Source: a virus. From it: a DNA stretch of 64,000 bases. Position numbers and translations under genes: made by a program. The stretch is from positions 32,001-96,000 of IMG/VR virus record IMGVR_UViG_3300028394_000044; one strand, 5' to 3'. Position 1 is the first letter of the stretch; each line of letters opens with the position of its first letter. Below the pieces are notes generated by a model, which searched no databases, was not told where the DNA came from, and saw only the letters and a list, made by a program, of their open reading frames with translations. This document shows, one piece after another, positions 2,669-61,156 of this stretch.

Positions 2669-2669
2669 T

Positions 2670-4304: not shown

Positions 4305-4307
4305 AAA

Positions 4308-4315: not shown

Positions 4316-4360
4316 GAATAATGAAACTAGTTCTATAAAATAAATAAAAGGAGAACATAA

Positions 4361-6025: not shown

Positions 6026-6053
6026 TAAATAAGAGAGAACAGGAGAAAACTAA

Positions 6054-6599: not shown

Positions 6600-6604
6600 T
6601 TTGA

Positions 6605-6629
6605 GAGGGAGGATATCTCCCTCATTTTT
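6605..6629 (+). terminator. Rho-independent terminator after gp19
   Basis: GAGGGAG...CTCCCTC stem followed by ATTTTT. Confidence 0.7.
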
Positions 6630-6652
6630 GTAATGAAAAGGAAATAAATCGG

Positions 6653-8336: not shown

Positions 8337-8492
8337 ATGGAAACAAGAGATTTTATTGATTTATTAGGAGCTGGTGAAGCATCCGAAGCTAAAAATGCTT
8401 TGGAAGAATTGCTCTCAGCTAAAGCATTTGATGCATTAGAAACAAAAAAACAAGAAATTGCATCCACACTTTTCACTACACAAGAAACATAA
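8337..8492 (+). CDS. Small prohead core protein, gp67-like (51 aa, below the ORF-track cutoff)
   Basis: TAAGGAG RBS; ATG 8337 to TAA 8492 reads METRDFIDLLGAGEASEAKNALEELLSAKAFDALETKKQEIASTLFTTQET; gp67 position after the portal. Confidence 0.7.
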   Translation: METRDFIDLLGAGEASEAKNALEELLSAKAFDALETKKQEIASTLFTTQET

Positions 8493-9187
8493 TGAAATCT
8501 TTACAAGAATTTAAATTAATTTCTGAGGAAGAAAAACAAGACTTCACTAAGTTTGATGCGCTTGTTCGTGCAGGTTTAGCCAATAAAGCACAACTTCAAA
8601 GATTGCATAAAATTCTCAGTAAAATGTCGGAAGAAAAACCTAATTTTTCACCAGCAGATAAAGCTATTATACAAAATGTATTTTCGAAAATGGTTGATTT
8701 GATTACTAATAATCCTCAAATTAATCGCCAAGTACGTAAGGCGGTTAATGAGAATGTTCATGATACTTCAGATTTCAAACTTGATGCTACAGGCAGAAAA
8801 GTCAAGGCACACAGGTTTAAAATAGGCAAAGATGAAACAATTGAAGAATCGATTAGTAATCAACCTCCCTACGTTATTGTTCTTAAAAGAACAGCAATTC
8901 GTTTGTATCCTAATGGAACAAAAGTTGCAACTTATTATAGTCAACGTTTAAATAAAGAATTTGCTATACCTTTTAGTGAAGATTCACTAAATATACAATC
9001 AGAAGGTTACGTTGTAGATTTTGATGACGGTGAATTTGTATTGGTAGATTTTGATACGGCATCAATAATGAATCAAGTATATGAATCCTTGAATAATGCA
9101 AACAAAGATAAATTTGCTAATATGATGCATGAATCTTTAGAACAATTTGAAAAGGCAAAATCTTTTGCTCTGAGTAAAACTAAATGA
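8492..9187 (+). CDS. Hypothetical prohead/internal head protein
   Basis: Coupled start/stop within the head operon; N-terminus MKSLQEF..ISEE resembles a capsid-targeting leader. Confidence 0.6.
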   Translation: MKSLQEFKLISEEEKQDFTKFDALVRAGLANKAQLQRLHKILSKMSEEKPNFSPADKAIIQNVFSKMVDLITNNPQINRQVRKAVNENVHDTSDFKLDATGRKVKAHRFKIGKDETIEESISNQPPYVIVLKRTAIRLYPNGTKVATYYSQRLNKEFAIPFSEDSLNIQSEGYVVDFDDGEFVLVDFDTASIMNQVYESLNNANKDKFANMMHESLEQFEKAKSFALSKTK

Positions 9188-9624
9188 GATTAATTGACTT
9201 CATATTTGAAGGTAGAGCTGTAGAAGCAAGAGAAGAAATTTTTTCTCGCTTAAATGATATTGTAGCTAAACGTTTAGAAGAAGCAAAGCAAATTATTGCA
9301 ACACATATATATGAAGAGATAGAGATTCTTGATGAAGCTCCTTCACGTAATATTATTAGACAAGGTAGAGTTGAAAAGATTCGCCGTAGAATTAGACGTA
9401 ATTCACAAGGACGAATTGTAGTTCAACGTAACGTTAAACGTTCTGCTCTAAAAGGATTTAAAATTTCTGGAAATACTGTAAAAAGAATACCTGCTATGCA
9501 ACGTATTCAAAAGACCAGAAAGTTGAAAAGATATTGGAAAACAAAAGGTAGGGCTAAAATGAATAGAACATTATTAAAAAGAAAAATGTCAATTCGCCGC
9601 CGCACATCAATGGGAATAAAATAA
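9184..9624 (+). CDS. Prohead core protein, gp68-like
   Basis: Acidic N-terminal half, very basic C-terminal half ending 'KRKMSIRRRTSMGIK'; located before the protease. Confidence 0.65.
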   Translation: MRLIDFIFEGRAVEAREEIFSRLNDIVAKRLEEAKQIIATHIYEEIEILDEAPSRNIIRQGRVEKIRRRIRRNSQGRIVVQRNVKRSALKGFKISGNTVKRIPAMQRIQKTRKLKRYWKTKGRAKMNRTLLKRKMSIRRRTSMGIK

Positions 9625-9986: not shown

Positions 9987-10640
9987 ATGAAACTAATTAC
10001 AGAAACAGTTGAAGACGTAAGATATTTAACTGAAAAAACGGAAGATGGAAAGAAAAATCTTTTTATTGAAGGTATCTTTCTTGTAGGCGAACAGGCAAAC
10101 AGAAATCGTAGAATGTATAAAATAAATACTCTACGTGAAGAAGTTGGTCGTTATACAACTGAATTCATCAAGACAAATCGTGCTCTTGGTGAACTTGGAC
10201 ATCCTGATACACCATCAATTAATTTAGAACGTGTGTGTATCAAAATTGAATCTTTGAAAGAAGATGGCGGTAATAGATTCATCGGTAAAGCGAGAGTTTT
10301 AGAAACTCCATATGGCAATATTGTTAAAAACTTTATTGAGTCTGGTGTTTCTTTGGGTGTTTCTTCCAGAGGTATGGGTTCATTAGTTCCTGGTCGTGAT
10401 GGTATTAACATTGTAGGCGATGACTTTAGATTAGCTACGGCTGCGGATGTTGTTGCTGATCCATCAGCACCAGGTGCATTTGTGAATGGTATTATGGAAA
10501 ACAAAGAATGGGTATTTGTTGAAGGACGTTTTGTGGAAATGCACATAGATAACGCAAAACGTCAAATACAACAAGCATCTAGAAAAGATATTGAACAAGT
10601 GGCTTATCGCCTCTTTGAAAACTTTATTTCAAAACTTTAA
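9987..10640 (+). CDS. gp21: Prohead protease
   Basis: Likely start MKLITE at 9987; 'ALGELGHP', 'GVSSRGMGS', 'ADVVADPSAPGAFV'. Confidence 0.96.
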   Translation: MKLITETVEDVRYLTEKTEDGKKNLFIEGIFLVGEQANRNRRMYKINTLREEVGRYTTEFIKTNRALGELGHPDTPSINLERVCIKIESLKEDGGNRFIGKARVLETPYGNIVKNFIESGVSLGVSSRGMGSLVPGRDGINIVGDDFRLATAADVVADPSAPGAFVNGIMENKEWVFVEGRFVEMHIDNAKRQIQQASRKDIEQVAYRLFENFISKL

Positions 10641-11690: not shown

Positions 11691-13025
11691 ATGTTTCTTT
11701 CCGAAAATCTACAAAAAAAGTGGGCACCTGTTCTAGAACATGCTGACCTACCAAAAATTACTGATCCATATAAGCGTGCTGTTACAGCCGTTATTTTGGA
11801 AAATCAGATCCAAGCAATGCAAAAAGACGCTGGTTATTTAACAGAAGCTGTACCTACAAACGCTTCTGGTACCGGTGGTTTTGGTGGTGCTGACGCTCAA
11901 AACGGCGGTCCAGTAGCCGGTTTCGATCCAATCCTTATTAGCTTGGTTCGCCGTTCATTGCCTAATTTGATTGCTTATGACGTTTGCGGTGTACAACCAA
12001 TGACTGGTCCTACAGGCATGATCTTTGCAATGCGTTCAATGTATGCAACTGACCGTACTACAGCTACTGGTACAGAAGCATTCTACAACGAAGCTAATAC
12101 TGCTCATTCTGGTGTTTCCAATTCTGTCCAACAAACATTGGCATTGAAAGGTTCTACTTCTGACCGTGCATATGGTGTCTTTGATGCTAACACGGCCGCT
12201 GCTATGGCTACAGCTACTGCTGAAAACTTGACACCACTTGAAATGGGTTTCAGCATTGAGAAAGTTACAGTTACTGCAAAGACACGTGCTTTGAAGGCTG
12301 AATACTCAATGGAACTTGCACAAGATTTAAAAGCAGTTCACGGTCTAGACGCTGAAACAGAATTGTCTAACATTCTGTCTTCTGAAATTCTTGCTGAAAT
12401 TAACCGTGAAGTTCTGCGTACAATCTACACAGTTTCTAAAGTTGGTTGCAAAGTTGGTACAACTACTGTTGGTACATTCGACTTGGACACTGACTCTAAC
12501 GGTCGTTGGATGGTTGAAAAAGTTAAAGGTTTGGCTTTCCAAATCGAACGTGAAGCTAACCAAATTGCTAAATTGACTCGTAGAGGTAAAGGCAATACAT
12601 TGATCTGTTCTTCTGACGTAGCTTCTGCTTTGGCAATGGCTGGTTTGTTGGACTATCAATCTGCATTGCAGAGCCAAGTTAACTTGACAGTTGACGATAC
12701 AGGTAACACATTTGCTGGTACATTGTTCGGTCGTATCAAAGTGTATATTGATCCATATTTCCCAACAGGCGCAACTTCCGAGTTCGCAGTTGTTGGTTTC
12801 AAAGGTTCTAATGCATATGATGCTGGTCTGTTCTATTGCCCATACGTTCCTTTGCAAATGGTTCGCGCAGTTGACACTAACACCTTCCAACCAAAAATTG
12901 GTTTCAAGACACGTTACGGTCTAGTTGCTAATCCATTCGCTGAAGGTACTGCTGCTGGTCTTGGTGCGTTGAATGCTACTGCAAACAACTACTATCGCGC
13001 ATTTAAGATTACAAACATTATGTAA
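11691..13025 (+). CDS. gp23: Major capsid protein
   Basis: 'GVQPMTGPTG.IFAMR', 'ELAQDLKAVHGLDAE.EL', 'FYCPYVPL', 'FQPKIGFKTRYG'; predicted gp21 cleavage at YLTE|AVPTN. Confidence 0.98.
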   Translation: MFLSENLQKKWAPVLEHADLPKITDPYKRAVTAVILENQIQAMQKDAGYLTEAVPTNASGTGGFGGADAQNGGPVAGFDPILISLVRRSLPNLIAYDVCGVQPMTGPTGMIFAMRSMYATDRTTATGTEAFYNEANTAHSGVSNSVQQTLALKGSTSDRAYGVFDANTAAAMATATAENLTPLEMGFSIEKVTVTAKTRALKAEYSMELAQDLKAVHGLDAETELSNILSSEILAEINREVLRTIYTVSKVGCKVGTTTVGTFDLDTDSNGRWMVEKVKGLAFQIEREANQIAKLTRRGKGNTLICSSDVASALAMAGLLDYQSALQSQVNLTVDDTGNTFAGTLFGRIKVYIDPYFPTGATSEFAVVGFKGSNAYDAGLFYCPYVPLQMVRAVDTNTFQPKIGFKTRYGLVANPFAEGTAAGLGALNATANNYYRAFKITNIM

Positions 13026-41402: not shown

Positions 41403-42140
41403 ATGGCAGGTGCATTAGCAGAACGACAAGAATCGGGTGTAGTTGAAAAAATTAATAGCGCATTCAAAGCGAACGGTAAAAATCCAATCACTTTAGTTGC
41501 CGGCAAAACTACAATTGTTGGTGTAGTTGGTGCTGAAAAATACACAGGTAGACAAGCTGGTGGTTCAGAACCATATACAGATGTTGTTATTAGCGCCATC
41601 GTCAAAGGTAAAAAGATTGATATTAATTGTTCCCTAAAAGGTGAATCTGCTCCATCTCTAGCAGGAGGCGGTTTAAAAGGTTTAGAACTTGCTGTGCCTG
41701 GTATTGCAAAAAAGTTTATGGAAGCTGCATTTAAAGAATTAACAGGTAGAAAAAAATTGCAAACGGGCGATAAAGTACCTGACGTATTTGGTAAAATTTC
41801 AGATAATGATAAAGTGAAAATTGTTGTTGGAAATAAAGCGATGGGCGGACCTATTGACTATATGTACATTGGTCCTATGAATGTTACTGGTAAATATGAT
41901 AAAAATAGTAACACCTTGACTTTAAACGGAACATTAACTGAAGCTGTAAAATATGCAAAAACCCATGACTTATATTTCCGACTAAGAGCTAGAAGAGAAG
42001 ATCAAAGATTTGATCCTGATTCGAAAGATAGAGATGGAACACCAAAGATTTATGGTGTTTCTCCTTCCCGTGGCGATAGTGCCGGTCGTATTGTTGTTAC
42101 TGACAAAGTGGCCTCAACAGGCGTAATTGTAAAAATATGA
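41403..42140 (+). CDS. Hypothetical late protein, possible PD-(D/E)XK-fold nuclease
   Basis: 'ERQE' helix, 'PYTDV', 'SLK' in restriction-fold spacing; GGAG RBS. Confidence 0.5.
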   Translation: MAGALAERQESGVVEKINSAFKANGKNPITLVAGKTTIVGVVGAEKYTGRQAGGSEPYTDVVISAIVKGKKIDINCSLKGESAPSLAGGGLKGLELAVPGIAKKFMEAAFKELTGRKKLQTGDKVPDVFGKISDNDKVKIVVGNKAMGGPIDYMYIGPMNVTGKYDKNSNTLTLNGTLTEAVKYAKTHDLYFRLRARREDQRFDPDSKDRDGTPKIYGVSPSRGDSAGRIVVTDKVASTGVIVKI

Positions 42141-43372
42141 AATTTACCGAATTTTTAACCGAAGGTGTCAAAAAAGAAGGTGCAAATCTTCACTTAGAAC
42201 ACATTGAGGACGAAGTATTAAACCGTGGTGTCTCTGGTGCTAGAGATGCTATTAACTTTTTGCGATCTCTTAGAGATATGTTAGCTGGTCATGCTGATTC
42301 CAAAGTAGCCACAACAACTAAATGGGATGGCGCACCTGCTGTCTTCTGCGGTATCAATCCTGACAATGGTAAGTTCTTTGTCGGTACCAAGGGAGTCTTT
42401 AACGTTAATCCGAAGCTGAATTATACAGATGCGGATATTGATACTAATCATCCAAGTGAAGGTCTAAATGCAAAATTAAAAGTTGCTTTGCGCTATTTGC
42501 CTAAACTTGGTATTGATGGTATTCTTCAGGGCGATATGATGTTTACTAAAGGTGATGTGCAGAAAAAAACAATTGATGGCGTTAAGTACATTATCTTTCA
42601 ACCAAACACTATTGTTTATGCTGTGCCCGAAGATTCTGCACTTGCCAAAACGATGCTATCTGCACAAATGGGTATAGTATTTCATACTTCATACACAGGT
42701 AAGACCTTCTCTGATATGAAGGCTTCTTTTAACATTGATATTAATCACTTAAAGACAACAAAAGATGTTTGGTTCCGAGATGCTTACTTTATTGATGCAT
42801 CAGGCACAGCATCGTTTACTGAGAAAGAGACAAAAGAAGTTACTTATGCACTTTCTGATGCAGGTACACTATTTCAAAAAATCAATTCTATGACACTGAA
42901 TAGAATCAGCACTAACGAAACTTTACTAGTTCAAATTAAAACTTTCAATAATACAAAGGTTCGTGAAGGAAAAGCTATCACTGACACAGTTAAACATACA
43001 CAAGAATTGATTAAGTGGGTTGAAGAGAAGCTGAATAAAGAAATCTTAGCTGCTAAAAAAGAAGACACTAAACTAAAACGTCAAGCTGAGAAGAATGAAA
43101 TCATGCGTTTCTACCGAAACAATAATGGTGAACTCATTAAGATTTTCAATTTGATGAATGACTTAGTGATTGTTAAAAATATGATTGTGAATAAATTGCA
43201 ACAAATGAAGCAAGTAACACATACTTTCTTACAAACTGATGATGGATATAAAATTACCAATCCTGAAGGTTTTGTTGCTGTAGATAAACTATCTGGTGGC
43301 GCTGTTAAATTAATTGATCGTTTAGAATTTGCTCATGCCAATTTTACGGCTGCAAAAAATTGGTCAAAATAA
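42137..43372 (+). CDS. Conserved T4-like protein with ligase-type (KxDG) nucleotidyltransferase motifs
   Basis: 'HLEHIED', 'KWDGAPA', 'QGDM', 'EGFV', 'VKLIDR.EF'; N-terminus MKFTEFLTE. Confidence 0.65.
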   Translation: MKFTEFLTEGVKKEGANLHLEHIEDEVLNRGVSGARDAINFLRSLRDMLAGHADSKVATTTKWDGAPAVFCGINPDNGKFFVGTKGVFNVNPKLNYTDADIDTNHPSEGLNAKLKVALRYLPKLGIDGILQGDMMFTKGDVQKKTIDGVKYIIFQPNTIVYAVPEDSALAKTMLSAQMGIVFHTSYTGKTFSDMKASFNIDINHLKTTKDVWFRDAYFIDASGTASFTEKETKEVTYALSDAGTLFQKINSMTLNRISTNETLLVQIKTFNNTKVREGKAITDTVKHTQELIKWVEEKLNKEILAAKKEDTKLKRQAEKNEIMRFYRNNNGELIKIFNLMNDLVIVKNMIVNKLQQMKQVTHTFLQTDDGYKITNPEGFVAVDKLSGGAVKLIDRLEFAHANFTAAKNWSK

Positions 43373-43842: not shown

Positions 43843-43866
43843 TTTATAATTTTTTTGGAGTATATT

Positions 43867-46412: not shown

Positions 46413-46419
46413 GATTATT

Positions 46420-49588: not shown

Positions 49589-50262
49589 TGAAAGATATTA
49601 CAATATACGGTCACCTAATTGGTGATACAGTAATGGATGGTGATTATGTTCTACCTCAAATTGGTGGCATGGCGAATGTATGGAGAGCATTATCTGATAT
49701 TGATATTAATTTAAATCTAGCACTCTCACCTACTGCTTACGGACAAGCAACAATTAAAGTATACCGAGATACCTGCACACGAGAATCTTTTGCTAATCTC
49801 AATGAATTGTCATTTGAACCGCATATACAAGAAAGTAAAATTTCACATGTGATGTATATTAATGAGTTGCCTAATACTAGATTCATGCATTACTTGGATG
49901 GTATAATTACTGCTGATACTTGTAAAGGTGAAAAATTTCTGAATAAGTATTTACTTGGAAAGATTGATTATTTGTTTGTTGCAGATGAAGATTGCCAAGA
50001 CTTGAATACATTACTAGCATACATAAAAGGTACAGTGATTTTACATTCTTCAACTGGAAGCAAAGTTTATCCACAAGATAAAGCACCTTGGTGTTTTGAT
50101 ATACCAGAAAGTCTGATTGTCAAAAATGCTAATGTTCTAGGAGCAGGTGATATTTTTGCTGCTAGTTTTCTTTATGGTATTCATAGAGGTATGGAAACTG
50201 AAGGTTGCATATCTTATGCACACTATAAAACGTCTGAATTGATTAGAAAATATAATGAATAA
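49588..50262 (+). CDS. PfkB/ribokinase-family sugar kinase
   Basis: 'GGMANV' and the anion-hole motif 'LGAGDIFAA'. Confidence 0.75.
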   Translation: MKDITIYGHLIGDTVMDGDYVLPQIGGMANVWRALSDIDINLNLALSPTAYGQATIKVYRDTCTRESFANLNELSFEPHIQESKISHVMYINELPNTRFMHYLDGIITADTCKGEKFLNKYLLGKIDYLFVADEDCQDLNTLLAYIKGTVILHSSTGSKVYPQDKAPWCFDIPESLIVKNANVLGAGDIFAASFLYGIHRGMETEGCISYAHYKTSELIRKYNE

Positions 50263-51442: not shown

Positions 51443-51891
51443 TTTTAATTTCTCATCGAGGCAATACTGAAGGCCCTAATATTCTATTAGAAAATACACC
51501 TAATTACATTCAGTCCGCAATCGACAGACAGTATATGGTTGAAGTTGATATATGGAAAAAAGATGATGTTTATTATATCGGTCACGATGCAAGTACAATG
51601 AATCCTGTTGACATTAATTGGCTAATTGATCGCCGGCAATGGCTCTGGATTCATTGTAAAAATAGAGAAGCATTAGACTCAATTTTAAGATTAAATCTTC
51701 ATTGTTTTTGGCACAATGAAGATTCTTATACCATGACAAGCAAAGGATACGTTTGGTGTTATCCTGGTCAACCTGCAGTGGGTTGGTTATCTGTAGCAGT
51801 CATGCCAGAAAAAAGAATTGATTTAAAAGACTTTAAATCGAATGAATATTTTGCTGTTTGTAGTGACTTTGTGAGTTTGCTAAATACATAA
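51439..51891 (+). CDS. Minimal GDPD/PLC-like phosphodiesterase
   Basis: 'ISHRGN', 'EN.P', 'EVDIW', 'GHD', 'WIHCKN', 'CSD'. Confidence 0.75.
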   Translation: MILISHRGNTEGPNILLENTPNYIQSAIDRQYMVEVDIWKKDDVYYIGHDASTMNPVDINWLIDRRQWLWIHCKNREALDSILRLNLHCFWHNEDSYTMTSKGYVWCYPGQPAVGWLSVAVMPEKRIDLKDFKSNEYFAVCSDFVSLLNT

Positions 51892-51894
51892 ATA
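51880..51894 (+). promoter_or_regulatory. Tandem late-promoter-like boxes
   Basis: CTAAATA followed by CATAAATA upstream of the internal-protein cluster. Confidence 0.6.
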
Positions 51895-51929: not shown

Positions 51930-54257
51930 ATGGATTTCAAGTCGTTTCTAGACGAACAAGCGCAAAAACATGCGGTCCTTGCTTTTGGACGTATGAACCC
52001 ACCAACAACTGGTCATGCAAAGTTAGTTGATAAGGTCAAAGAAGTTGCTAAAGAAGTGGGTGGAACACATCACGTAGTTCTATCTCACAGCCAAGATGTT
52101 AGTAAGAATCCACTATCAGCCGAACAAAAGCTGAAACATGCACACAGATTCTTTCCAGATACCAATCTGAGCACCTCGGATAAAGAACATCCAACATTCT
52201 TACAACACGCAGCCAAATTACATAAAACTGGTGTCACACACTTACATATGGTTGCAGGTTCCGATCGGGTTGGCGAATATGAAAAGAAACTAGCACAATA
52301 CAATGGCACACACAAAGGTGCTTTGTATAATTTCAAAAAAATCACAGTTCATTCTGCCGGAGAACGTGATCCTGATGCCGAAGGCACAGAAGGTATGTCT
52401 GCATCCAAGATGCGTGAACATGCTAAAAATAACAACCTAAAAGACTTTAAAAAAGGTGTTCCGTCCCATGTTTCACATGAACATGCTAAGGAATTGATGC
52501 AGGATGTTCGTAAAGGGATGAATGTTAAAGAAGATTTTAATTCAATCATCTTTAATATACTGACCGAAGGTGTGCATGATAAGAGTATTTTTAAAGCAGT
52601 TTTTCTATCCGGTGGACCAGGTTCAGGTAAAGATTATATCCTCGACAACACATTAGCTGGTCATGGATTGGTAGAAATCAACTCTGATAAAGCATTAGAG
52701 TTCTTGATGGATAAGAACAATCTTGATAAGAAGATGCCAGAGTCCGAAAAAGATATTCGCAACATCGTTCGTGGTAAAGCGAAAGATATGACAGAACTGA
52801 AACAACACCTTGCATTGTTAGGACGTAATGGTCTTATTATCAATGGTACAGGTGATGATCCAGCTAAGTATACAAAAATTAAAAAGAATCTAGAGTCTAT
52901 TGGCTATGAAACTATGATGGTTTCAGTTAATACAAAAGATGAAGTTTCTTCACAAAGAAATATTGAGCGTGGTCAACGTGGCGGTCGTACAGTACCTGAA
53001 GATATTCGTAAAGAAAAATGGGATGCTGTAAACAATGCCAGACCTGAAATGGCAAAGTTGTTTGGTCACAATTACTATGAGATTGATAACTCTGAAGACT
53101 TACGTTCAGCGAAGCCAGATGTTGTCAAAGCTAAAAAAGACGAAATGTTGAACATTTTCAAAAAAGTTCAAGAATTTGTTAAAACAGCACCTAAGAACAA
53201 TGAAGCTAAACAATGGGTTGCTGGCGAATTGAGTAAGAAAGATACATTACCAATCGATAAGAAAGGTGCAGAGTATTCTGGTCCTGCACCCGATGATGCT
53301 GCTCAAACTGAAGCAACCAGACTTGGTTTACAATATTATGGTTTTGGTCGTTACGGAAAAAATAGTAAAGTTACTCACCACTCTGTACATGGTAAATTGG
53401 TGCAAGATCCAACACATGCAGAACAACAAAAAGTTGCAGCCAAAGCTGCAAAAGTCAAACCAAATTTGGGTAGTGGTTCACCTGCATCCAAAAAAGTTTC
53501 TGAAAGTATCAATGAAGAATTTGAGAAACTTATAAGTGAAGTTGGAACTATTCATAATGGAAATTATGATGGTCCAAAAACTGCAAAAGGTCCTGAAGGA
53601 CATACATATACTGCAACGGCTGGAAAGCCAAGAGTTTATGCAATACGTAATTCGGCAGCTAAAGACGCACACCGTATGAATGGTGAAGTTATTAAGACCG
53701 AAAAAGGTTACATGGTTAAATTAAAGGAGAATAAACATGTTGAAATTTCTAAAGAGCTTTTGGAGCAAAAAACAATCAGTATCAGCACCAGTGGTGACAC
53801 CGGAGCCAGTCAAGGTACCAGAACCGGTGGAAGCAGTAAAGCCACCAGTGGTGACACCTACACCTGCACCAGAACCAGTGGTGGAAACACCATTAGTGAA
53901 GACGCCGGATGTGGATGTGACTCCTGCCAAACAACCGGCAGCCGCTATGACACCAGCCCCAAAGAAAAAAAGAAACTCTACCTCTCGCAAGCCAAAGACA
54001 AACTCGCCAAAAAAGTAAAAGAGTCTATCGACCAAGGTATTGAAACTGGAATGTCCATGGCAGCCGGAGGTGAATCCGGTAGCCGTGACATGGGTGAGAA
54101 ATTGAGTAAAAAAGGTAAGGCTATACCTTTCACTAAAGATTCACTCAAAGAAATGGGTGGAGATGAAACTACCGCATCTATTGGTGACCAAAAAGAAGAT
54201 GAGTTGAAGAAACAAGGTATTAGTTTAATTTCATTTAAAAAGAGAAACTACACATGA
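51930..54257 (+). CDS. Multidomain protein: HxGH-type (NMNAT/cytidyltransferase-like) nucleotidyltransferase, zeta-toxin-like P-loop kinase and C-terminal modules
   Basis: 'FGRMNPPTTGH', 'GSDR', 'SASKMR'; then 'GGPGSGK', 'INSD', 'INGTG', 'R..RG..GGRTVPE'. Confidence 0.8.
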   Translation: MDFKSFLDEQAQKHAVLAFGRMNPPTTGHAKLVDKVKEVAKEVGGTHHVVLSHSQDVSKNPLSAEQKLKHAHRFFPDTNLSTSDKEHPTFLQHAAKLHKTGVTHLHMVAGSDRVGEYEKKLAQYNGTHKGALYNFKKITVHSAGERDPDAEGTEGMSASKMREHAKNNNLKDFKKGVPSHVSHEHAKELMQDVRKGMNVKEDFNSIIFNILTEGVHDKSIFKAVFLSGGPGSGKDYILDNTLAGHGLVEINSDKALEFLMDKNNLDKKMPESEKDIRNIVRGKAKDMTELKQHLALLGRNGLIINGTGDDPAKYTKIKKNLESIGYETMMVSVNTKDEVSSQRNIERGQRGGRTVPEDIRKEKWDAVNNARPEMAKLFGHNYYEIDNSEDLRSAKPDVVKAKKDEMLNIFKKVQEFVKTAPKNNEAKQWVAGELSKKDTLPIDKKGAEYSGPAPDDAAQTEATRLGLQYYGFGRYGKNSKVTHHSVHGKLVQDPTHAEQQKVAAKAAKVKPNLGSGSPASKKVSESINEEFEKLISEVGTIHNGNYDGPKTAKGPEGHTYTATAGKPRVYAIRNSAAKDAHRMNGEVIKTEKGYMVKLKENKHVEISKELLEQKTISISTSGDTGASQGTRTGGSSKATSGDTYTCTRTSGGNTISEDAGCGCDSCQTTGSRYDTSPKEKKKLYLSQAKDKLAKKVKESIDQGIETGMSMAAGGESGSRDMGEKLSKKGKAIPFTKDSLKEMGGDETTASIGDQKEDELKKQGISLISFKKRNYT
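53737..54018 (+). CDS. Nested +1-frame Pro/Lys-rich small protein (overprinted)
   Basis: AAGGAGA RBS at 53724-53730, 6 nt before the ATG; amphipathic MLKFLKSFWSKK, Pro-rich middle, basic tail. Confidence 0.7.
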   Translation: MLKFLKSFWSKKQSVSAPVVTPEPVKVPEPVEAVKPPVVTPTPAPEPVVETPLVKTPDVDVTPAKQPAAAMTPAPKKKRNSTSRKPKTNSPKK

Positions 54258-54550
54258 AATCATTCATTTCTTTTATTACTGAAGGTTCTCCTGCTTGGCA
54301 ACGCAAAGAAGGTAAAAATCCTGAAGGTGGATTAAACCGTAAAGGTATTGCTTCTTATCGTTCCGAACATCCAGGGTCTAAACTCTCAATGGCTGTTACA
54401 ACTAAGCCCTCAGAATTAAAACCTGGCTCTAAAGCTGCTAATCGTAGAAAATCGTTCTGTGCTAGAATGGGTGGTGTTGATGGACCAATGGAGAAACCAA
54501 ATGGTGAACCAACACGTAAAGCACTAGCATTAAGAAAATGGAATTGCTAA
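54254..54550 (+). CDS. Conserved small basic phage protein with a capsid-targeting-like leader
   Basis: MKSFISFITE; 'AWQRKEGKNPEGGLN', 'RRKSFCARM', 'ALRKWNC'. Confidence 0.75.
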   Translation: MKSFISFITEGSPAWQRKEGKNPEGGLNRKGIASYRSEHPGSKLSMAVTTKPSELKPGSKAANRRKSFCARMGGVDGPMEKPNGEPTRKALALRKWNC

Positions 54551-54576
54551 TTTAAAATAACAAAAAAGGAAAAAAC

Positions 54577-55818
54577 ATGTTTCAAGACAAATCATTACTC
54601 GCAGTTGCCGAAGCTGTTAAAAAAGTTTGGGCGGAAGGCTTAACAGATAAGCAAAAAAAGATTGATAAAAATCACAATAATAAAATTGATGGTCAAGACT
54701 TGGCTATTTTGCGTAAAGAAGGTTGGGATGATATGATGAAGGCCGTTAAAGATAGAGCGGCTCCACAACCAAATGGTGGTGCAGGTAAGAAGCAAGGTTC
54801 TGCTTACGGTGGTTCTAAGCAAAAAGATGAAAAGCCTTTGAAAGAAGAAGATGCATACAGCAAAGATCGCTATGCAGTTAAAGATGGTAAAGCTATGAAA
54901 GATAATCCTACACACAAGGGTCATCCTGACTATGCAGATAAGCCACATCACGTTTGGGCTACAAGTCCTGAAGAAGCGATGAAAAAAAAGAAGACTGTTA
55001 AAGAAGAAGCATCACAAGCTGAATTCACTGCTGAATTGAAGAAAGCTCAAGCAAAAGCTCAAGGCAAAGAAAAAGCTGATGTTGCAAAGCCTGCTGTGCA
55101 AGCTGTGCAAAATGAACAGACACACACGCAAATAGAAGTATTTAACTTGAATGACGCTAATGGTGTTAAGCGTTCAGTTATTGATTTGGAAGAAGCTAAA
55201 TCTGGTTACGATTTGTATCACTCAATGTATTCTGGTGCAGTTCAACATGGATTAGCTCATCACGAAAAAAGTGGTTTGACAGTTGATCCTGATGATTATC
55301 ATGATAAAGTAACTGTTGGTCCAAAAAAACCTTCAGAAGGTAAAACTGTTAGTCACAATATTAAAGCAACAAATGCTAAAGGTGAATCACATATGATTCA
55401 TATGCAAGTCCACAATAAAGGTGGAAATAAACCTTACGAATTGAATACTTATTCTAGCAAAGTTCCAAAAAAACAAGTTAAAGAAGAACATACTGGTCTA
55501 CATCCAGATGCACAAAAAGTATTGAAGCATATTAAGCCGGAACATCAATCTAAGTATCATGCCGATCTAACACCAAAAACATACAAGGGTGATTATGCTG
55601 ATAGATCAGCAATCCTTGATGCTGCTGAAAGAGCAGGTCATTTAAAAGAAGAAGTTGAGCAAATTGATGAACGTCATTTAACTTCTGCTGAATCTGAAAA
55701 AATGGAAAAGAATGTTAAGTCTATGAAAAAAGGTTTATCTGGTTTTAAAGAACGTTATGGCAAAGATGCTAAATCTGTGATGTATGCGACGGCAACAAAA
55801 CAGGCCAAGGGAGAGTGA
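54577..55818 (+). CDS. Modular Lys/His-rich putative internal head polyprotein
   Basis: Segments separated by (V/L)KEE, LEE and IDE; EF-hand-like 'DKNHNNKIDGQD'; C-terminal 'VMYATATKQAK'. Confidence 0.7.
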   Translation: MFQDKSLLAVAEAVKKVWAEGLTDKQKKIDKNHNNKIDGQDLAILRKEGWDDMMKAVKDRAAPQPNGGAGKKQGSAYGGSKQKDEKPLKEEDAYSKDRYAVKDGKAMKDNPTHKGHPDYADKPHHVWATSPEEAMKKKKTVKEEASQAEFTAELKKAQAKAQGKEKADVAKPAVQAVQNEQTHTQIEVFNLNDANGVKRSVIDLEEAKSGYDLYHSMYSGAVQHGLAHHEKSGLTVDPDDYHDKVTVGPKKPSEGKTVSHNIKATNAKGESHMIHMQVHNKGGNKPYELNTYSSKVPKKQVKEEHTGLHPDAQKVLKHIKPEHQSKYHADLTPKTYKGDYADRSAILDAAERAGHLKEEVEQIDERHLTSAESEKMEKNVKSMKKGLSGFKERYGKDAKSVMYATATKQAKGE

Positions 55819-55819
55819 A

Positions 55820-58084
55820 ATGAGAAGTTTCAAGCAGATTGCAAGTCTTGTCCGAGGTGAGGACATTTCGGAAGAGGGTAAAAAGTCTCTCGGAACAGGA
55901 TGGATGCTGAAGGCTGATCCAAAATTGGGAAAAGCCGTCAAAGATAAGATCGACCTTACTAAAAAACGTCAAGCAACTTATGGTGATAAATCGGCTGGCA
56001 AGTCCATCAAAGAAGATATTTCACTTGATGAAGTAATGTTCAAAAAAAGTCCTTATGGTAGAACTGCGGCAAGTCAACAACGAGCTAAAGATTTGCTGAA
56101 CCCTCCAAAAGAATCAACCGAAACTAAAGCGGATGAAAAGAAAGAGGTTAAAGAAGCTGTTAAGCAACCAACAGGTAAATTGAAAGATGCCTGCTGGACT
56201 GGTTACACTGCTGTTGGTACAAAAATGAAGAACGGTAGAGAAGTTCCTAATTGTGTACCAGTCAAAGAAGATTTTGAGCAACTTGACGAAATGCCAGGTG
56301 CTAACATGGATACACGGGCTGTACATTCTCACCTAAAGAAAAAAGGTTGGTCTTTAAGTCGTACTTCTGGTGGGCATGATGTATTCACCCATCCTAATGC
56401 GGCTCATCATATTCCAGTTCCTCGTCACCGCCAGTTAAAAGCACCTCTGATTAAAGGTATTTTAAAATCCTCTCAGATTAGTGAAGAAACTAAAGATGTT
56501 GGTGAATATGACTATGAAGGTCAAATGGCTCGTACACAATTACAAACAACATTGCGTAATTGTGAAGATTTACTTGGAATGATTAACGATAATGATAATA
56601 TGCCTGAGTGGGTACAATCTAAGATAACCTTAGCTCAAGACTATATCACAACTGTTAGAGATTATCTACAATCAAAAGAGGAACTCGGTGAAGAAGTTGA
56701 TCCTGCACATAAAAAGATTCTAGATAAAGCGAAAACCAGTACACCTAAATCACCTAAAGGTGAATATGATCGCAAGGTTGAAAAGTATCTGAAGAAAAAG
56801 CATGGCATGAAAGAAGAAGTTGAGCAGATTGATGAGTTGTCTAAGAAAACTCTTGGCTCGTATGTCAATAAAGCACTGGACAGCGCAAGAGAAATGCCTG
56901 GCTCTGGCACGAATGCTGAAGCCAGCAAAAAGTCAAAACGTTTCGCTTCTGTTTCTGCGGCTGCATATCGCACACAAGGTCTTGCGCCAAGAAAAGGCAC
57001 TGATATGTTTAAAAAGTACAAAGCTGAAAGTGTTGTGGCGGAAGGCTCATTAGAAGAAGATAAATATGATAAAATGCTAAGAGATTTGGTGAAGGCAAGA
57101 CCTGACTTAAATAAAAAATATGCCAAAGATGTTAAAAGGTCAAAAGATATTGAAAGTGGCAAAGAGTTAAACAAACTTGTTAAAAAGAATCCTGGTGTAT
57201 TGAAAACACACAGTGATGCTGTAAAGAGAGATAAGAAACTAGGTATGGCGGAAGGCCTATCAGAAATGGACAAATCACAAACTCCGCCAGGACGAGACGG
57301 TCACGTAAGTCATGGCACATACGGTTCTAGAGACAAGAAAGATCCGGATGCTGGTAAGAAACAAGTCTACGGCAAAATGGAGCGCCCTGAAAAAACAACC
57401 AAAACGGCATCGGATATTCTTAACAAAGCATTTAATAAAGGTGTGGCAGAAGCTGTGACATATGAGCCAAGTCCGGGTGCTCGTCCAAATAACGCTGGAC
57501 ATACGCTTGTTGGTTTCTCATTTCATTCCGATAACACAAAACATGCTAACATTATGAAGCATGGTGAGACTGGTAAGTATTATGCTGCAGGTGGCAGTTC
57601 TTCACATCCCGTTAAAAGTACCACATTTCACGATACACCCGAAGATGCTGTTAAAAGCAAAAAGTCTTATGTTAAAGAAGAAGTTGGTCAAGCAACAAAT
57701 TCAAATGAAAATCCAAACAAGGGTCGTTTCATGTCTGCACCAGCTAAAAAAGTAATGAAGCCATCACCTATGGTAACTTCAGAGCAATCTGCTTCTGATA
57801 TTGGTCAACCACAAAGAGAAATTCCTCTTGATACAGCTAAAACTGACCACTCCACCGCTATGAAGATAGCTAAGTTGGCTGCACGTAGACAAGCAGGAAT
57901 CAAAGAGGACATGGAAGCAGACAACTCACTAGGTAAAAATGATACTCTTGCTAAACAAAGCCTTAGCAGAACTGCTGGCATTACAAAAGACCTTGCACTT
58001 ACTGGCAAGAATAAAGAAAATGTGAAGAATAAGGAAAAGTTCGAGCCTGAACCAGAACTATCTTCACAAATCGTTAAACCTTAA
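55820..58084 (+). CDS. Modular putative internal head polyprotein containing a HicA-like domain
   Basis: About 11-12 segments bounded by acidic xxE linkers; modules 'CWTGY..NCVP', HicA-like, 'PEWVQSKIT', 'ELSKKTLGSY'. Confidence 0.75.
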   Translation: MRSFKQIASLVRGEDISEEGKKSLGTGWMLKADPKLGKAVKDKIDLTKKRQATYGDKSAGKSIKEDISLDEVMFKKSPYGRTAASQQRAKDLLNPPKESTETKADEKKEVKEAVKQPTGKLKDACWTGYTAVGTKMKNGREVPNCVPVKEDFEQLDEMPGANMDTRAVHSHLKKKGWSLSRTSGGHDVFTHPNAAHHIPVPRHRQLKAPLIKGILKSSQISEETKDVGEYDYEGQMARTQLQTTLRNCEDLLGMINDNDNMPEWVQSKITLAQDYITTVRDYLQSKEELGEEVDPAHKKILDKAKTSTPKSPKGEYDRKVEKYLKKKHGMKEEVEQIDELSKKTLGSYVNKALDSAREMPGSGTNAEASKKSKRFASVSAAAYRTQGLAPRKGTDMFKKYKAESVVAEGSLEEDKYDKMLRDLVKARPDLNKKYAKDVKRSKDIESGKELNKLVKKNPGVLKTHSDAVKRDKKLGMAEGLSEMDKSQTPPGRDGHVSHGTYGSRDKKDPDAGKKQVYGKMERPEKTTKTASDILNKAFNKGVAEAVTYEPSPGARPNNAGHTLVGFSFHSDNTKHANIMKHGETGKYYAAGGSSSHPVKSTTFHDTPEDAVKSKKSYVKEEVGQATNSNENPNKGRFMSAPAKKVMKPSPMVTSEQSASDIGQPQREIPLDTAKTDHSTAMKIAKLAARRQAGIKEDMEADNSLGKNDTLAKQSLSRTAGITKDLALTGKNKENVKNKEKFEPEPELSSQIVKP

Positions 58085-58120: not shown

Positions 58121-58684
58121 ATGTCACTATGGTCCGTTTCAGATTCAAGCAATGCCGCACCTAAATTTGCAGGTGTTGATGTAAGTATTGGTGCCAGCGC
58201 AACTGGTTCATCATTGTTTGGTAACACACAAATTGCCGCATTCCAGACTACTAAAAATATCACTGTTGGTGTTTTTGGTGTAGGTACAACTGAACAAGGT
58301 GTATCCGCTTCATCAAATATACATCCACAACATGCTGGTTGGGTTCTGGTTAAAAGTGGCACTGGCCCAGTTGTTAGCATTACAGCTAACGCATCGGCAG
58401 TTGCAACTAATACTTACTTGACTTTCACAGGTACAACAGGTTCTACTACTGCCAACGCAACTGTGACAGTTAATACTGCTGGTTATATCCAATCAGTTAC
58501 TGTTAACTCTGGTGGTAACTACTTGAGAGCACCTGCTATTACTCAAGTTGGTAACGCTAACTTCACAATCACCATGGGTGGTCGTGCTGGTCGTGTACAA
58601 ACAGAAACTCTTGTTGCTATGGCATCTATTGGCACACAAGGTGTTGCTGATGCAAGCGACAATGCTACTTTCCCAAATAGCTAA
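58121..58684 (+). CDS. Putative virion structural/decoration protein
   Basis: Late promoter, strong RBS, Thr/Ala/Gly-rich beta composition; 'HAGWV' and 'ETLVAM' motifs. Confidence 0.6.
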   Translation: MSLWSVSDSSNAAPKFAGVDVSIGASATGSSLFGNTQIAAFQTTKNITVGVFGVGTTEQGVSASSNIHPQHAGWVLVKSGTGPVVSITANASAVATNTYLTFTGTTGSTTANATVTVNTAGYIQSVTVNSGGNYLRAPAITQVGNANFTITMGGRAGRVQTETLVAMASIGTQGVADASDNATFPNS

Positions 58685-59070
58685 TGATTGATTTTAAATT
58701 ATTCTTGAGTGAAGAATTGGAAGACTCTGAAGTTAATTTGGTGTCTTCCTACAACAGTCAAGAACTAAATGATAGTTTGTTCAGAGATTTGAGTAGTCCT
58801 TTTCTTTCTGTACAAGCTGGATTTTCTTACTTAAGAAAAACTTTATTTTCTTATGGTATAGATATTCCACCTGTGTTTGATTTGGATCCAGAAGGTGACG
58901 AAATGTTGTTGGATGTTTCCGGGTATGGTGCAGAGCAGTCATCAATATTGTATGTTTTATATTCTCTAACCGATGATGGTTATTATGATTTCTATGCTGA
59001 ACTCACTGATGAGTCTGGTGCGGATGAATTGCTGAAATCTGGTACAGAGGAGCAAGAAGAAGAAGTTTAA
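58684..59070 (+). CDS. Acidic hypothetical protein
   Basis: TAATG coupling; N-terminus MIDFKLFLSEE. Confidence 0.65.
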   Translation: MIDFKLFLSEELEDSEVNLVSSYNSQELNDSLFRDLSSPFLSVQAGFSYLRKTLFSYGIDIPPVFDLDPEGDEMLLDVSGYGAEQSSILYVLYSLTDDGYYDFYAELTDESGADELLKSGTEEQEEEV

Positions 59071-59462: not shown

Positions 59463-59833
59463 ACGAATATATTATTCAAAAGAGAGGATTTCAAGTGCAT
59501 ATGCATGAAGACGGTGAAGCTCCAATGAATTCTGTTGGTTCTGGTAACGTAGCGGGTATTGGTATTAATAATCCAAAACTTTCAGACCAAGCGCAGCCTG
59601 GTGTTAAACGTAAAAAGTTTGCAGGCTCAACGGTATTTAAAGTACCAACTAAATCTTTTGTTATGGCTAAAATGCTTAAACGCAAATACGCACGATTTGA
59701 ATCTTACCTTGGTGATCCAGTTGTTTCTAAAGAAATTTCTGAATTTGCTAATTCTAATTGGAAAGAAGGTATTGTTTTAGAAGATGAACAAACTGGTGCA
59801 ATGATGTATGTTCGTTATGGCAAAGGAAAATAA
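59459..59833 (+). CDS. Hypothetical late protein
   Basis: 'APMNSVGSGNVAG', 'L.DE.TGAM.Y.R'; coupled ends. Confidence 0.65.
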   Translation: MNEYIIQKRGFQVHMHEDGEAPMNSVGSGNVAGIGINNPKLSDQAQPGVKRKKFAGSTVFKVPTKSFVMAKMLKRKYARFESYLGDPVVSKEISEFANSNWKEGIVLEDEQTGAMMYVRYGKGK

Positions 59834-60279
59834 TGTGGATATTAAAATTTCTTCCTGACTGGATTTTCCACGCAGTGTTTTTTTTGGGGTTAATTGGGCT
59901 TGTAGCAACATATTTGCTCAAACTAATTCCAATTCCATTTCTCTACGTCTACAAAACTCCCATACAATTAATCTCTATCGCATGTATCGTTATTGGCGTA
60001 TACATGGCTGGCGCTATTGCTAATGAAGATGCATGGAATGCTAGAGTTGCTGAGTTACAAATAAAGGTAGCAGAAGCAGAAGCCAAATCTACACAGGTTA
60101 ACACAGAGGTTGTTGAGAAAGTTGTTAATCGCACTCAAGTGATTAAAGAAAAAGGTGATGAAGTCATCAAGTATGTAGAAACAGAAGTTGTCAAATATGA
60201 CACTAAATTTTTACCGGGTGGTCAATGTGAAATGCCTAAAGAATTTATTATAGCATTGAATAAAGCGGCTTTACCATGA
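59833..60279 (+). CDS. Inner-membrane spanin (Rz-like)
   Basis: N-terminal TM segments plus a periplasmic coiled coil with a C-terminal Cys; overlaps the lipoprotein gene. Confidence 0.75.
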   Translation: MWILKFLPDWIFHAVFFLGLIGLVATYLLKLIPIPFLYVYKTPIQLISIACIVIGVYMAGAIANEDAWNARVAELQIKVAEAEAKSTQVNTEVVEKVVNRTQVIKEKGDEVIKYVETEVVKYDTKFLPGGQCEMPKEFIIALNKAALP

Positions 60280-60533
60280 GATATATAATTTTAACTCTAT
60301 TATTGACAGGTTGTGCAAGCACTACAGTTCCAGTAACTGTTCCTTTTCCACAAGCACCACAAGTATTGATGCAAAGATGCCCACCTTTAAAACTGATGCC
60401 CGAGGATGCTAAATTGAGTGATGTTGCTCGGGTTATTACTGAAAATTATACTTTATATTATAATTGTGCTATCAAAAATGATGCGTGGATTGAGTGGTTT
60501 GATAAACAAAAACAAATTTATGGAGACTTCTAA
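60276..60533 (+). CDS. Outer-membrane spanin lipoprotein (Rz1-like)
   Basis: Lipobox LTGC; Pro-rich 'P..P..LMQ.CP.L'; 'NY..Y..C'. Confidence 0.85.
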   Translation: MRYIILTLLLTGCASTTVPVTVPFPQAPQVLMQRCPPLKLMPEDAKLSDVARVITENYTLYYNCAIKNDAWIEWFDKQKQIYGDF

Positions 60534-61156
60534 TGGAATTATCAAAAGAACAATTAAAACAATTGTTACCTAAAAATCCGTATATTGACCATTGGTACGA
60601 TGCTCTGTCCAAATTACTACCCGATTACGAAATCAATACGCGCCAGCGTATAGCTGCATTTGTTGCACAATGTTCTCATGAATCTGGTGGTTTTACCGCA
60701 CTAAAAGAAAATTTAAATTACAAAGCACAAACGCTTCGTAAGATTTTTCCAAAGTATTTTCCTACTGATGCTCTTGCTAATGAATATGTAAACAAGCCTA
60801 ATAAACAAGAAGCTATTGCTAACAAAGTTTATGCTAATCGCATGGGTAATGGCAATGAAGCCTCGGGTGATGGATACAAATATTGTGGTCGCGGTTTAAT
60901 TCAATTAACGGGTAAAGAAAACTATTCATGGTTTGCAGCATCTTTAGAAATTTCAGTTGAAGACGCTGCGGAATATTTACAAACATTTGAAGGTGCTGCA
61001 CAGTCTGCATGTTGGTTTTGGGAAACAAATAACCTCAATCAGTGGGCAGACAAGGGTGATATTGTCACTCTAACTAAACGTATTAATGGTGGTACTATTG
61101 GTCTTGAGGACCGCATTAAACACTATGAACATGCGCTACATGTATTAGGAGCATAA
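60533..61156 (+). CDS. GH19-family endolysin
   Basis: 'AAF.AQ..HES', 'ENLNY', 'GRGLIQLTG..NY', 'T.RINGG..G..DR'. Confidence 0.92.
   Translation: MELSKEQLKQLLPKNPYIDHWYDALSKLLPDYEINTRQRIAAFVAQCSHESGGFTALKENLNYKAQTLRKIFPKYFPTDALANEYVNKPNKQEAIANKVYANRMGNGNEASGDGYKYCGRGLIQLTGKENYSWFAASLEISVEDAAEYLQTFEGAAQSACWFWETNNLNQWADKGDIVTLTKRINGGTIGLEDRIKHYEHALHVLGA

Follow-up and report, generated by a model that had tools for sequence, protein, structure and literature searches.

An uncultured T4-like phage strings about 25 small, mostly basic protein modules, including a predicted HicA domain, into long proteins, and the modules are joined by a conserved acidic linker that ends in a T4-type phi-x-E site, the cutting motif of its presumed head protease. 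These results suggest that the proteins are probably loaded into the capsid and cut apart there, although cleavage and packaging are inferred from sequence and from homologues alone. We analysed a 64,000-nt window (positions 32,001 to 96,000 of IMG/VR record IMGVR_UViG_3300028394_000044; genome of 162 kb), in which a first-pass annotation had described two adjacent late proteins as strings of short basic modules separated by acidic linkers. That description proved correct. All 12 linkers listed for the larger protein (P0002) and all 5 for the smaller one (P0001) were present at their places. One correction was required: the annotation had started the larger gene at 55784, with a 35-nt overlap with the preceding gene, but the ATG located 36 nt downstream is preceded by a GGGAGAG ribosome-binding site, and homologues and the 754-aa database entry start there. 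The two genes therefore do not overlap. The features are collected in Table 1, in which an arrow marks the putative cleavage position, as it does throughout the text.

Table 1. Features of the predicted cargo operon and of related loci in the window (positions are those of the window).
Position	Strand	Feature	Supporting data
51887..51894	+	Late-promoter-like CATAAATA, 36 nt upstream of the first gene of the operon	NATAAATA lies within 60 nt upstream of this gene and of the sheath, tube, gp22 and baseplate genes; no + strand terminator-like site inside 51930-58084
51930..54257	+	775-aa first gene: leader MDFKSFLDE↓Q, HxGH nucleotidyltransferase ('cytidylyltransferase'), P-loop zeta/PNK-like kinase, then further small modules with phi-x-E linkers	Cyanophage homologue T4-GC190
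54254..54550	+	98-aa DUF6321 module behind a T4-like capsid-targeting decapeptide, MKSFISFITE↓G	PF19846, E 4e-21, 76 bits against a cut-off of 28.5; leader compared with T4 IPII/IPIII; relatives carry leaders MISFKQFLEE↓S, MLTFKEYLEE↓S and similar
54577..55818	+	413-aa polyprotein (P0001), about 7 modules
54577..54612	+	Putative propeptide MFQDKSLLAVAE↓A of P0001	End resembles T4 FIAE↓A; family consensus MFNDKxLxSVAE↓A
55195..55485	+	Alpha/beta module of P0001 (residues 207-303), preceded by LEE↓A and followed by VKEE	pLDDT 74-92; homologue in cultured phage Melnitz is preceded by MDE↓A
55642..55671	+	Linker LKEEVEQIDE in P0001	26-nt DNA repeat family D3; in a low-pLDDT stretch, 352-364
55672..55815	+	C-terminal helical module of P0001 (residues 366-413), shared with the N-terminus of cyanophage T4-GC119 proteins	pLDDT 87-93; 47% identity with S-E7 GC0119
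55820..58084	+	754-aa polyprotein (P0002 from Met13), about 12 modules
55820..55873	+	Putative propeptide MRSFKQIASLVRGEDISE↓E	93% identical N-terminal block 13-78 in many relatives; family consensus ...LEE↓GKKS
56156..56269	+	CWTGY...NCVP beta-hairpin module (predicted; residues 125-162)	pLDDT 74-87; recurs in cyanophage proteins and behind leaders in relatives
56261..56290	+	Linker VKEDFEQLDE	P1 Glu more than 90% conserved in 76 relatives
56291..56485	+	Complete HicA-fold module (predicted) between LDE↓M and ISE↓E	Catalytic-region G-x-H-D more than 90% conserved
56507..56692	+	Acidic helical-hairpin module (PEWVQSK; predicted), residues 242-303	pLDDT 83-95; the most widespread module
56807..56836	+	Linker MKEEVEQIDE
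57059..57253	+	Basic helical module (residues 426-490) between SLEE↓D and MAE↓G	pLDDT 74-87; net charge +9
57452..57679	+	Beta module (residues 557-632) between GVAE↓A and VKE↓E
57680..58081	+	Conserved, mostly disordered C-terminal tail (residues 633-766)	At the C-terminus of about 100 relatives
6653-8326		Portal
8492..9624	+	Two ORFs at the gp67/gp68 position (between portal and protease) with leader-like starts MKSLQEFKLISE↓E and MRLIDFIFE↓G
9987..10640	+	T4 gp21-type prohead protease (Peptidase_S77), the presumed processing enzyme; its own N-terminus is MKLITE↓T	PF03420, E 1.4e-36
11691..13025	+	Major capsid protein gp23, with four phi-x-E motifs in its first 52 residues, the last being YLTE↓A
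42137..43372	+	DUF6267 protein with leader MKFTEFLTE↓G, probably further capsid cargo
58684..59070	+	128-aa ORF with leader MIDFKLFLSE↓E	Same gene in L006, among the related loci

The modules named in the first-pass annotation were also real. The HicA module matched Pfam PF07927 (E 5e-9, 36.5 bits against a cut-off of 27), and its predicted fold matched HicA 6g26_E with Z 9.5 and 2.0 A over 60 of 61 residues; it belongs to the toxin type of HicAB toxin-antitoxin systems (6g26, 5yrz, 4p78). A fold search with the whole P0002 model gave HicA as the only specific match, whereas the helical modules matched generic hairpins at Z about 6, which was not informative. A HicB antitoxin, sought with PF15919 as the only antitoxin family, had no match in the whole 162-kb genome; thus, this HicA differs from the known toxins in lacking that partner and in being embedded in a polyprotein rather than encoded as a free toxin gene. 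The CWTGY...NCVP motif (residues 137-158) was predicted as a beta hairpin, the PEWVQSK segment as a helical hairpin with pLDDT above 90, and DKNHNNKIDGQD is an EF-hand or dockerin-like loop. The capsid protein carries GYLTE↓AVP, as the annotation had noted.

To determine whether the linkers are more than chance or low complexity, we compared them with shuffled sequences. Plain [LIVM]xE was not enriched: we counted 19 sites in 766 aa, against about 15 estimated from composition, so that the raw count of this low-information motif was rejected as evidence and only the extended linker and its coincidence with homology breakpoints carry weight. In the four operon proteins, phi-K-E-[ED] occurred 10 times against 0.3 in shuffles, and the long linker 5 times against 0.15; the latter was found only 3 times in the other 181 ORFs of the genome (0.07 per 1000 aa). 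In 238 relatives, the linker [K/N]EEVE[Q/L][L/I][D/E]E occurred 433 times against 12 in shuffles. When we anchored only on EEVE, 250 of 269 unique contexts carried phi-x-E within 0-2 residues, followed by L, M, A or G, although the first half-site of the linker (x-K-E↓E) had a hydrophobic P3 in only 39% of contexts. Chance and low complexity were therefore rejected.

We next examined how the proteins vary among relatives. Searches returned 784, 3343 and 1622 database relatives with partial, rearranged coverage, in which modules are swapped, dropped or reordered at the linkers. Homology breakpoints with 119 mosaic relatives lay on average 6.6 aa from the nearest site, against 18.7 +/- 5.6 for random sites, and 63% lay within 4 aa, against 21%. 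Collinear and invariant architecture, which had been set beforehand as a condition that would refute the polyprotein idea, was thus ruled out. No near-identical DNA was found in cultured phages, but the cultured phages S-SM1, Syn9, S-E7, S-RIM14 and Melnitz carry the same architecture.

The linker is also repeated at the DNA level inside the operon (26 nt, 85-96% identity), and recombination could therefore explain part of its conservation. Together with the extreme module shuffling and the position of the operon about 40 kb from the head genes, among replication and lysis genes, this leaves room for an alternative in which the proteins are cytoplasmic, non-virion multidomain proteins and the linker is mainly a recombination joint, a micro-homology cassette border for shuffling small accessory domains, with only an incidental resemblance to protease sites. 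We consider this unlikely: linker variants differ in sequence but keep the same amino acid pattern (KEEVEQIDE, NEEVELTE, SEEVEQLEE and others), T4-like targeting leaders sit on the same genes, a late-promoter motif precedes the operon, homologues are flagged as having virion proteomic data, and linkers co-occur with the protease. The late-promoter-like sequence, also seen before structural genes, is a motif only, and late expression is inferred from it.

The two genes close a four-gene operon, and its leaders were compared with the T4 capsid-targeting signal, MKTYQEFIAE↓A, which has aromatic residues at positions 4 and 7, an aliphatic residue at 8 and Glu at 10. The leaders of the two upstream genes and of the DUF6267 protein resemble this signal and keep positions 4, 7, 8 and 10, which T4 genetics found critical. 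Such leaders start 54 of 1258 ORFs in related loci, against 11 of 5754 internal Met. In contrast, P0001 and P0002 have longer, deviant leaders, ending VAE↓A and ISE↓E, that lack the aromatic residue at position 7, so that the 'one targeting leader' proposed by the first-pass annotation is doubtful for these two ORFs. Likewise, the S-SM1 GC119 protein starts MPLVNQEAE, with no canonical leader. The DUF6321 module has a Glu 1-3 residues before AWxRK whether a leader or another module precedes it, indicating the same presumed mature N-terminus in both settings.

The S77 protease is present here and in 4 of 5 relatives' records. Four complete podophage genomes without it carry four of the module types as separate genes of 36-112 aa, without leader or linker. 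For virion evidence, we turned to the cyanophage literature. T4-GC119, a DUF6321-ending polyprotein that shares modules with P0001, P0002 and P0004 of the four operon proteins (P0001-P0004), and the cytidylyltransferase T4-GC190 are flagged as having proteomic data in the yes/no column of a supplementary table, which for GC119 does not say in which phage or whether the protein was cut; GC190 is named in the text as detected in purified S-SM1 virions. Two further assignments were rejected: ORF 58121-58684 showed no similarity to the cyanophage 'structural protein' at the syntenic place, and T4-GC15 is not the DUF6267 protein, because it maps to the baseplate region in the supplementary table. 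Literature searches for DUF6321 and for cyanophage polyproteins found nothing relevant, and we found no paper describing this system.

Structure prediction placed the linkers in low-pLDDT stretches between confident small domains, and acidic spacers alternate with basic modules. These features, and the fact that virion detection of GC119 does not show cleavage, would also fit packaging as uncut multidomain internal proteins, with the linkers acting as flexible or charge-masking spacers. This reading appears unlikely, because a spacer needs no nine-residue consensus ending in [LI][DE]E in 93% of contexts, the same modules are separate tiny genes where the protease is absent, and the presumed mature N-terminus of DUF6321 is the same after a leader or after a module. 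A third possibility is that a host or other phage protease cuts the polyproteins in the cytoplasm and the products act there, for example as nucleoid or RNA-binding factors. Podophages have the same modules as free small proteins with no known capsid-targeting route, and capsid localization is only inferred here. However, no peptidase family matched in P0001-P0004 in Pfam or PHROGs at E <= 0.1, the site matches the T4 gp21 rule of cleavage after the Glu of (L/I)-x-E, the phage's own capsid protein carries LTE↓A, and the leaders of the operon match the T4 signal, except for the deviations given above; we consider this possibility very unlikely.

Our best explanation, held with moderate confidence, is that the four genes form a late operon of capsid cargo precursors. 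In this view, the proteins are made late in infection and recruited to the prohead core through N-terminal T4-type capsid-targeting sequences or leader-like propeptides. During head maturation, the gp21-type serine protease would cut them after the Glu of phi-x-E, mainly at the end of the conserved linker, and the short acidic spacers (net -2 to -4) would be lost. About 25 small products, most of them basic (+2 to +9) and including a complete HicA RNase domain and a nucleotidyltransferase-kinase, would stay in the head with the DNA and, by analogy with T4 IPI-III and Alt, enter the host at infection. Our analysis demonstrates the modular architecture, the conservation of linker and leader, the mosaic evolution at the joints, the presence of the protease and its co-occurrence with linkers and leaders; the proteomic data for cyanophage homologues come from the literature, whereas targeting, cleavage, retention in the head, injection and the functions of the modules are inferred. 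The interpretation in the first-pass annotation, that one leader packages many mini-proteins that are cut apart and injected as a takeover or anti-defence cocktail, is thus partly supported. The cocktail is its weakest part: only HicA, the upstream nucleotidyltransferase-kinase and an ADP-ribosyltransferase (ART) carried between such linkers in one relative look like enzymes. Most modules are tiny, strongly basic domains or disordered stretches that look like nucleic-acid binders, and a role like that of the basic T4 internal proteins, binding DNA in the head, fits them at least as well.

The closest known system is that of the T4 internal proteins IPI, IPII, IPIII and Alt, with a capsid-targeting sequence and gp21 processing (PMC9026906; Mullaney and Black, 1996, as cited there). 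Both have a T4-type S77 prohead protease, leaders of 10-12 residues ending in phi-x-E with nearly the same key residues (apart from those of P0001 and P0002), small basic cargo, putative here, accompanied by enzyme cargo (Alt is a packaged ART, and one relative here carries an ART), and hypervariable cargo content among relatives. However, T4 has one cargo per gene and one N-terminal cut (Alt also has a C-terminal cut), whereas here up to about 12 unrelated modules sit in one chain joined by a dedicated linker, and the cargo has no sequence homology to IPI-III. In the giant phages phiKZ, 201phi2-1 and SPN3US (PMC9026906, PMC5694885), a gp21-related protease also cuts head and inner-body/ejection proteins after Glu in a short motif at several sites per substrate, and the products are ejected with the DNA; there, the extra cuts mostly remove long propeptides from one mature protein, and strings of unrelated, reshuffled mini-domains with a fixed linker are not described. 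Polyvalent proteins of phages and conjugative elements (Iyer et al., 2017; PMC5512222) also hold many unrelated, conflict-type domains in one polypeptide, and the variable architectures seen among relatives here agree with this. They are proposed to be cut by an embedded zincin-like metallopeptidase, of which none was found here with Pfam or PHROGs, and their domains are large enzymes rather than 40-100-aa basic modules; that paper states that T4-like ARTs are not in genuine polyvalent proteins.

A further-reaching reading remains possible, although we regard it as tentative. Aquatic T4-like phages (relatives of cyanophages, pelagiphages and OM43 phages) may use a cargo-loading principle that we did not find described, in which small basic virion proteins that are separate tiny genes in podophages have been fused into polyprotein precursors. 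The fixed acidic linker would be the cut site of the head protease and, until cut, would mask the basic modules and hold toxic ones, such as HicA, latent. Maturation inside the capsid would release about 25 internal proteins in one-to-one proportions, to be injected with the DNA, and new cargo would be added simply by recombination at the linker.

If confirmed, the best explanation would account for how a very abundant group of marine and freshwater T4-like phages fills its capsids with many small proteins that genome annotation now lists as 'hypothetical', and it would offer a natural design for loading several proteins into a phage head from one gene. It would give a functional setting to widespread orphan families such as DUF6321, the CWxGY module and phage-borne HicA without HicB, and would extend the T4 targeting-and-processing paradigm from one cargo per gene to plug-in polyproteins.

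The viral record from which the window (bases 32001-96000) derives is complete, with a length of 162,299 bp and terminal repeats. Its gene content indicated a T4-like phage, with terminase, sheath, tube, portal, prohead protease, scaffold and capsid genes. The capsid protein is about 61% identical to those of Pelagibacter phage HTVC008M, OM43 phage Melnitz and cyanomyophages, and a search for near-identical DNA among cultured phages found none. The polyprotein genes lie in a stretch that is syntenic with Kyanoviridae, in which a cytidylyltransferase gene is followed by hypothetical proteins and, further on, DNA primase. In cyanomyophages, a hypothetical gene of roughly 410 aa lies directly upstream of the cytidylyltransferase; at that place the present genome carries an 8-kb block of sugar-nucleotide and glycosyltransferase-type genes, which therefore looks like an insertion.

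Coordinates of the features discussed in the text. Positions are those of the window unless a phage is named; a slash marks a candidate cleavage point after Glu.
Position	Feature	N-terminus or upstream motif
2670-8326	Terminase, sheath, tube and portal	
8492 (start)	ORF at the gp67/gp68 position	MKSLQEFKLISE/E
9184 (start)	ORF at the gp67/gp68 position	MRLIDFIFE/G
9987-10640	Peptidase_S77 prohead protease	
10676-11668	gp22-like scaffold	
11691-13025	gp23 capsid protein	
41403-42140	245-aa ORF	MAGALAE/R; perfect TATAAATA 21 nt upstream
42137-43372	DUF6267 gene	MKFTEFLTE/G
43855-51891	Block of sugar-nucleotide and glycosyltransferase-type genes (epimerase, methyltransferase-like, HAD/PNK-like) between the DUF6267 and cytidylyltransferase genes	
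51930-54257	775-aa first gene of the operon	MDFKSFLDE/Q; CATAAATA 36 nt upstream
51930-52540	Cytidylyltransferase part of the 775-aa gene, matching phrog_455	
51930-53200	HxGH nucleotidyltransferase followed by P-loop kinase	
53737-54018	93-codon ORF, out of frame (+1) inside the 775-aa gene	
54254 (start)	ORF of the operon	MKSFISFITE/G
55820 (start)	P0002, the larger polyprotein	18-residue leader ending ISE/E
58684 (start)	ORF	MIDFKLFLSE/E
59833-61156	Lysis cassette directly downstream: two spanin-like ORFs and a 207-aa endolysin	
1598-3564 of Pelagibacter phage Lederberg	Run of tiny genes	
408-2971 of HTVC027P	Run of tiny genes	
324-4685 of Methylophilales phage Melnitz	Genes 18, 20 and 21	MKKFSEIIE/A on the nucleotidyltransferase

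We first translated the two polyprotein genes, P0001 (the smaller) and P0002 (the larger), and found every linker and module that the first-pass annotation had listed; its observation thus held. One correction was required. The larger gene starts at ATG 55820 and not at 55784, as a GGGAGAG ribosome-binding site sits in the last codons of the upstream gene, and homologues as well as the database entry of 754 aa begin at this Met. The raw [LIVM]xE motif was not enriched, whereas the specific linkers were: phi-K-E-[ED] occurred 10 times against 0.3 in shuffled sequences, and the long linker occurred 5 times against 0.15. In the other 181 ORFs of the genome, the long linker was found 3 times in 44,283 residues. 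Three of the linkers also form a 26-nt DNA repeat of 85-96% identity.

To examine the modularity of these proteins, we searched databases for relatives and obtained 784 for P0002, 3343 for P0001 and 1622 for shorter forms. Nearly all of them showed partial coverage at high local identity, with lengths from about 130 to over 1100 aa, and pairwise maps showed modules kept, dropped, duplicated and reordered. Breakpoints in P0002 clustered at residues 78/84, 119-124, 159-163, 232-241, 304-306, 348-352, 417-421, 554 and 628-633, that is, at the linkers. Their mean distance to the nearest phi-x-E was 6.6 aa, against 18.7 ± 5.6 aa for random sites, and 63% lay within 4 aa, against 21%; the relatives are not independent, but about ten separate joints show the effect. 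AlphaFold models predicted small confident islands at 121-150 (beta hairpin), 161-220 (HicA), 231-290 (helical hairpin), 411-474 and 547-580 of P0002 (numbered from Met13), and at 21-60, 205-300 and 366-413 of P0001. The low-confidence stretches that separate them include the linkers, and about half of P0002 is predicted to be disordered. In silico cutting at the candidate sites gave modules with a net charge of +2 to +9, except for one acidic hairpin at -7, and spacers of -1 to -4, mostly -2 to -4.

We then analysed the linker in 238 relatives. The pattern x-E-[ED]-phi-x(1-4)-phi-x-E occurred 433 times, against 12 in shuffled sequences, and the commonest forms were KEEVEQIDE, KEEVELDE and NEEVEQLDE. 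When the contexts were anchored on EEVE alone, 250 of 269 unique contexts had phi-x-E within two residues, giving the consensus [K/N]EEVE[Q/L][L/I][D/E]E followed by L, M, A or G. The upstream half-site had a hydrophobic P3 in only 39% of contexts; therefore, the consistent T4-type site is the one at the end of the linker. The same linker occurs in marine cyanophage proteins next to the cytidylyltransferase gene, S-RIM14 having KNEEVETVDE/A and KKEEVEIEE/G, and in Melnitz (KKEEIEIDE/M and NKEEVELDE/G). The cultured OM43 phage Melnitz has the same architecture in three genes, with a leader on the nucleotidyltransferase, a CWDTH...NCVP module and KKEEIEIDE/M linkers, and is a tractable system.

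T4 IPII and IPIII begin with MKTYQEFIAE/A, in which positions 4 and 7 matter for targeting and positions 8 and 10 for processing (PMC9026906). Asp at P1 blocks T4 processing. Six N-termini in this genome resembled this capsid-targeting sequence (CTS), as listed in the table for the ORFs starting at 54254, 51930, 42137, 58684, 8492 and 9184. In related loci, 54 of 1258 ORFs started with such a leader, against 11 of 5754 internal Met, and the cargo behind it included DUF6321, CWxGY modules, cytidylyltransferases and DUF6267. One relative of 210 aa reads MKSFKSFIAE/V followed by a CWKGY module, HicA and DUF6321; it fuses modules of two of this window's genes behind a leader that is identical to that of T4 at six of ten positions. 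P0001 and P0002 themselves have less canonical leaders, although that of P0001 ends in VAE/A, close to the IAE/A of T4. DUF6267 and the cytidylyltransferase, both with CTS-like leaders here, matched different parts of one PHROG profile (phrog_455, positions 21-341 and 419-638), indicating that some phages fuse them.

To explore the link to the prohead protease, we compared the junctions and the genomes of carriers. DUF6321 has a Glu 1-3 residues before its AWxRK start, whether a leader or another module precedes it. Four of five relatives' records with polyproteins, including both complete ones, encode the protease. In contrast, four complete podophage genomes (HTVC031P, S-CBP4, Lederberg and HTVC027P) lack an S77 protease, and they encode DUF6321, the GLYANIHAKRKR module and two further module types as separate genes of 36-112 aa with a net charge of +10 to +27. 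These genes start directly at the domain, without leader or linker, and in two of these phages they lie between the scaffold and capsid genes. Lederberg and HTVC027P carry runs of 10-13 tiny genes (29-112 aa), most of them extremely basic (net charge up to +27) and several homologous to modules of the T4-like polyproteins, which look like an unfused counterpart of the array.

An experimental anchor comes from cyanophage virions. Sullivan et al. 2010 (PMC3037559) reported the cytidylyltransferase T4-GC190 in purified S-SM1 virions, and their supplementary table flags proteomic data for GC190 and for GC119, without reporting whether GC119 is cut in the virion. GC119 of S-SM1 (495 aa) and of S-E7 (529 aa) is a polyprotein of the same kind, which ends in DUF6321 and shares modules with P0001 (E 1e-5) and P0002 (E 2e-4). 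Its length ranges from 276 to 2985 nt among 15 cyanophages.

T4 late promoters read TATAAATA. In this genome, a motif of this type, CATAAATA, precedes the operon, and NATAAATA lies within 60 nt of the start of 18 genes, many of them known structural genes (sheath, tube, gp22). The 245-aa ORF at 41403-42140, which had no family match, may be another late head protein. Genes in the operon overlap or are closely coupled, and no + strand terminator-like site was found inside it.

The closest known system is the T4 CTS/internal-protein system, and multi-site processing is known in phiKZ-like phages. Delivered and processed multidomain proteins have been proposed as 'polyvalent proteins', which use an embedded metallopeptidase; no peptidase family matched in the polyproteins here in Pfam or PHROGs. 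Our literature search found no description of polyproteins of reshuffled mini-modules joined by a dedicated prohead-protease linker.

The HicA module is complete and keeps its conserved residues, and HicB (PF15919) had no match in the whole genome. The first gene of the operon carries an HxGH nucleotidyltransferase and a zeta/PNK-like P-loop kinase, which is the domain order of NadR-type NMN adenylyltransferase/ribosylnicotinamide kinase; a virion-borne NAD-salvage or nucleic-acid-repair enzyme is possible. One relative has an ADP-ribosyltransferase between linkers. The remaining modules matched no known family. The modular architecture, the conserved linker and leaders and their association with the protease are results of the sequence comparisons, whereas packaging into the capsid, cleavage by the gp21-type protease and masking of the basic modules by the acidic linkers until cleavage are inferred. 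The first-pass interpretation, that the prohead protease cuts these proteins into arrays of delivered small effectors, was thus supported only in part, and we hold with moderate confidence that they are capsid-packaged, gp21-processed polyproteins. As the size and charge of the remaining modules resemble those of the basic T4 internal proteins, we favour a mixed cargo, consisting mostly of putative nucleic-acid-binding internal proteins plus a few enzymes.
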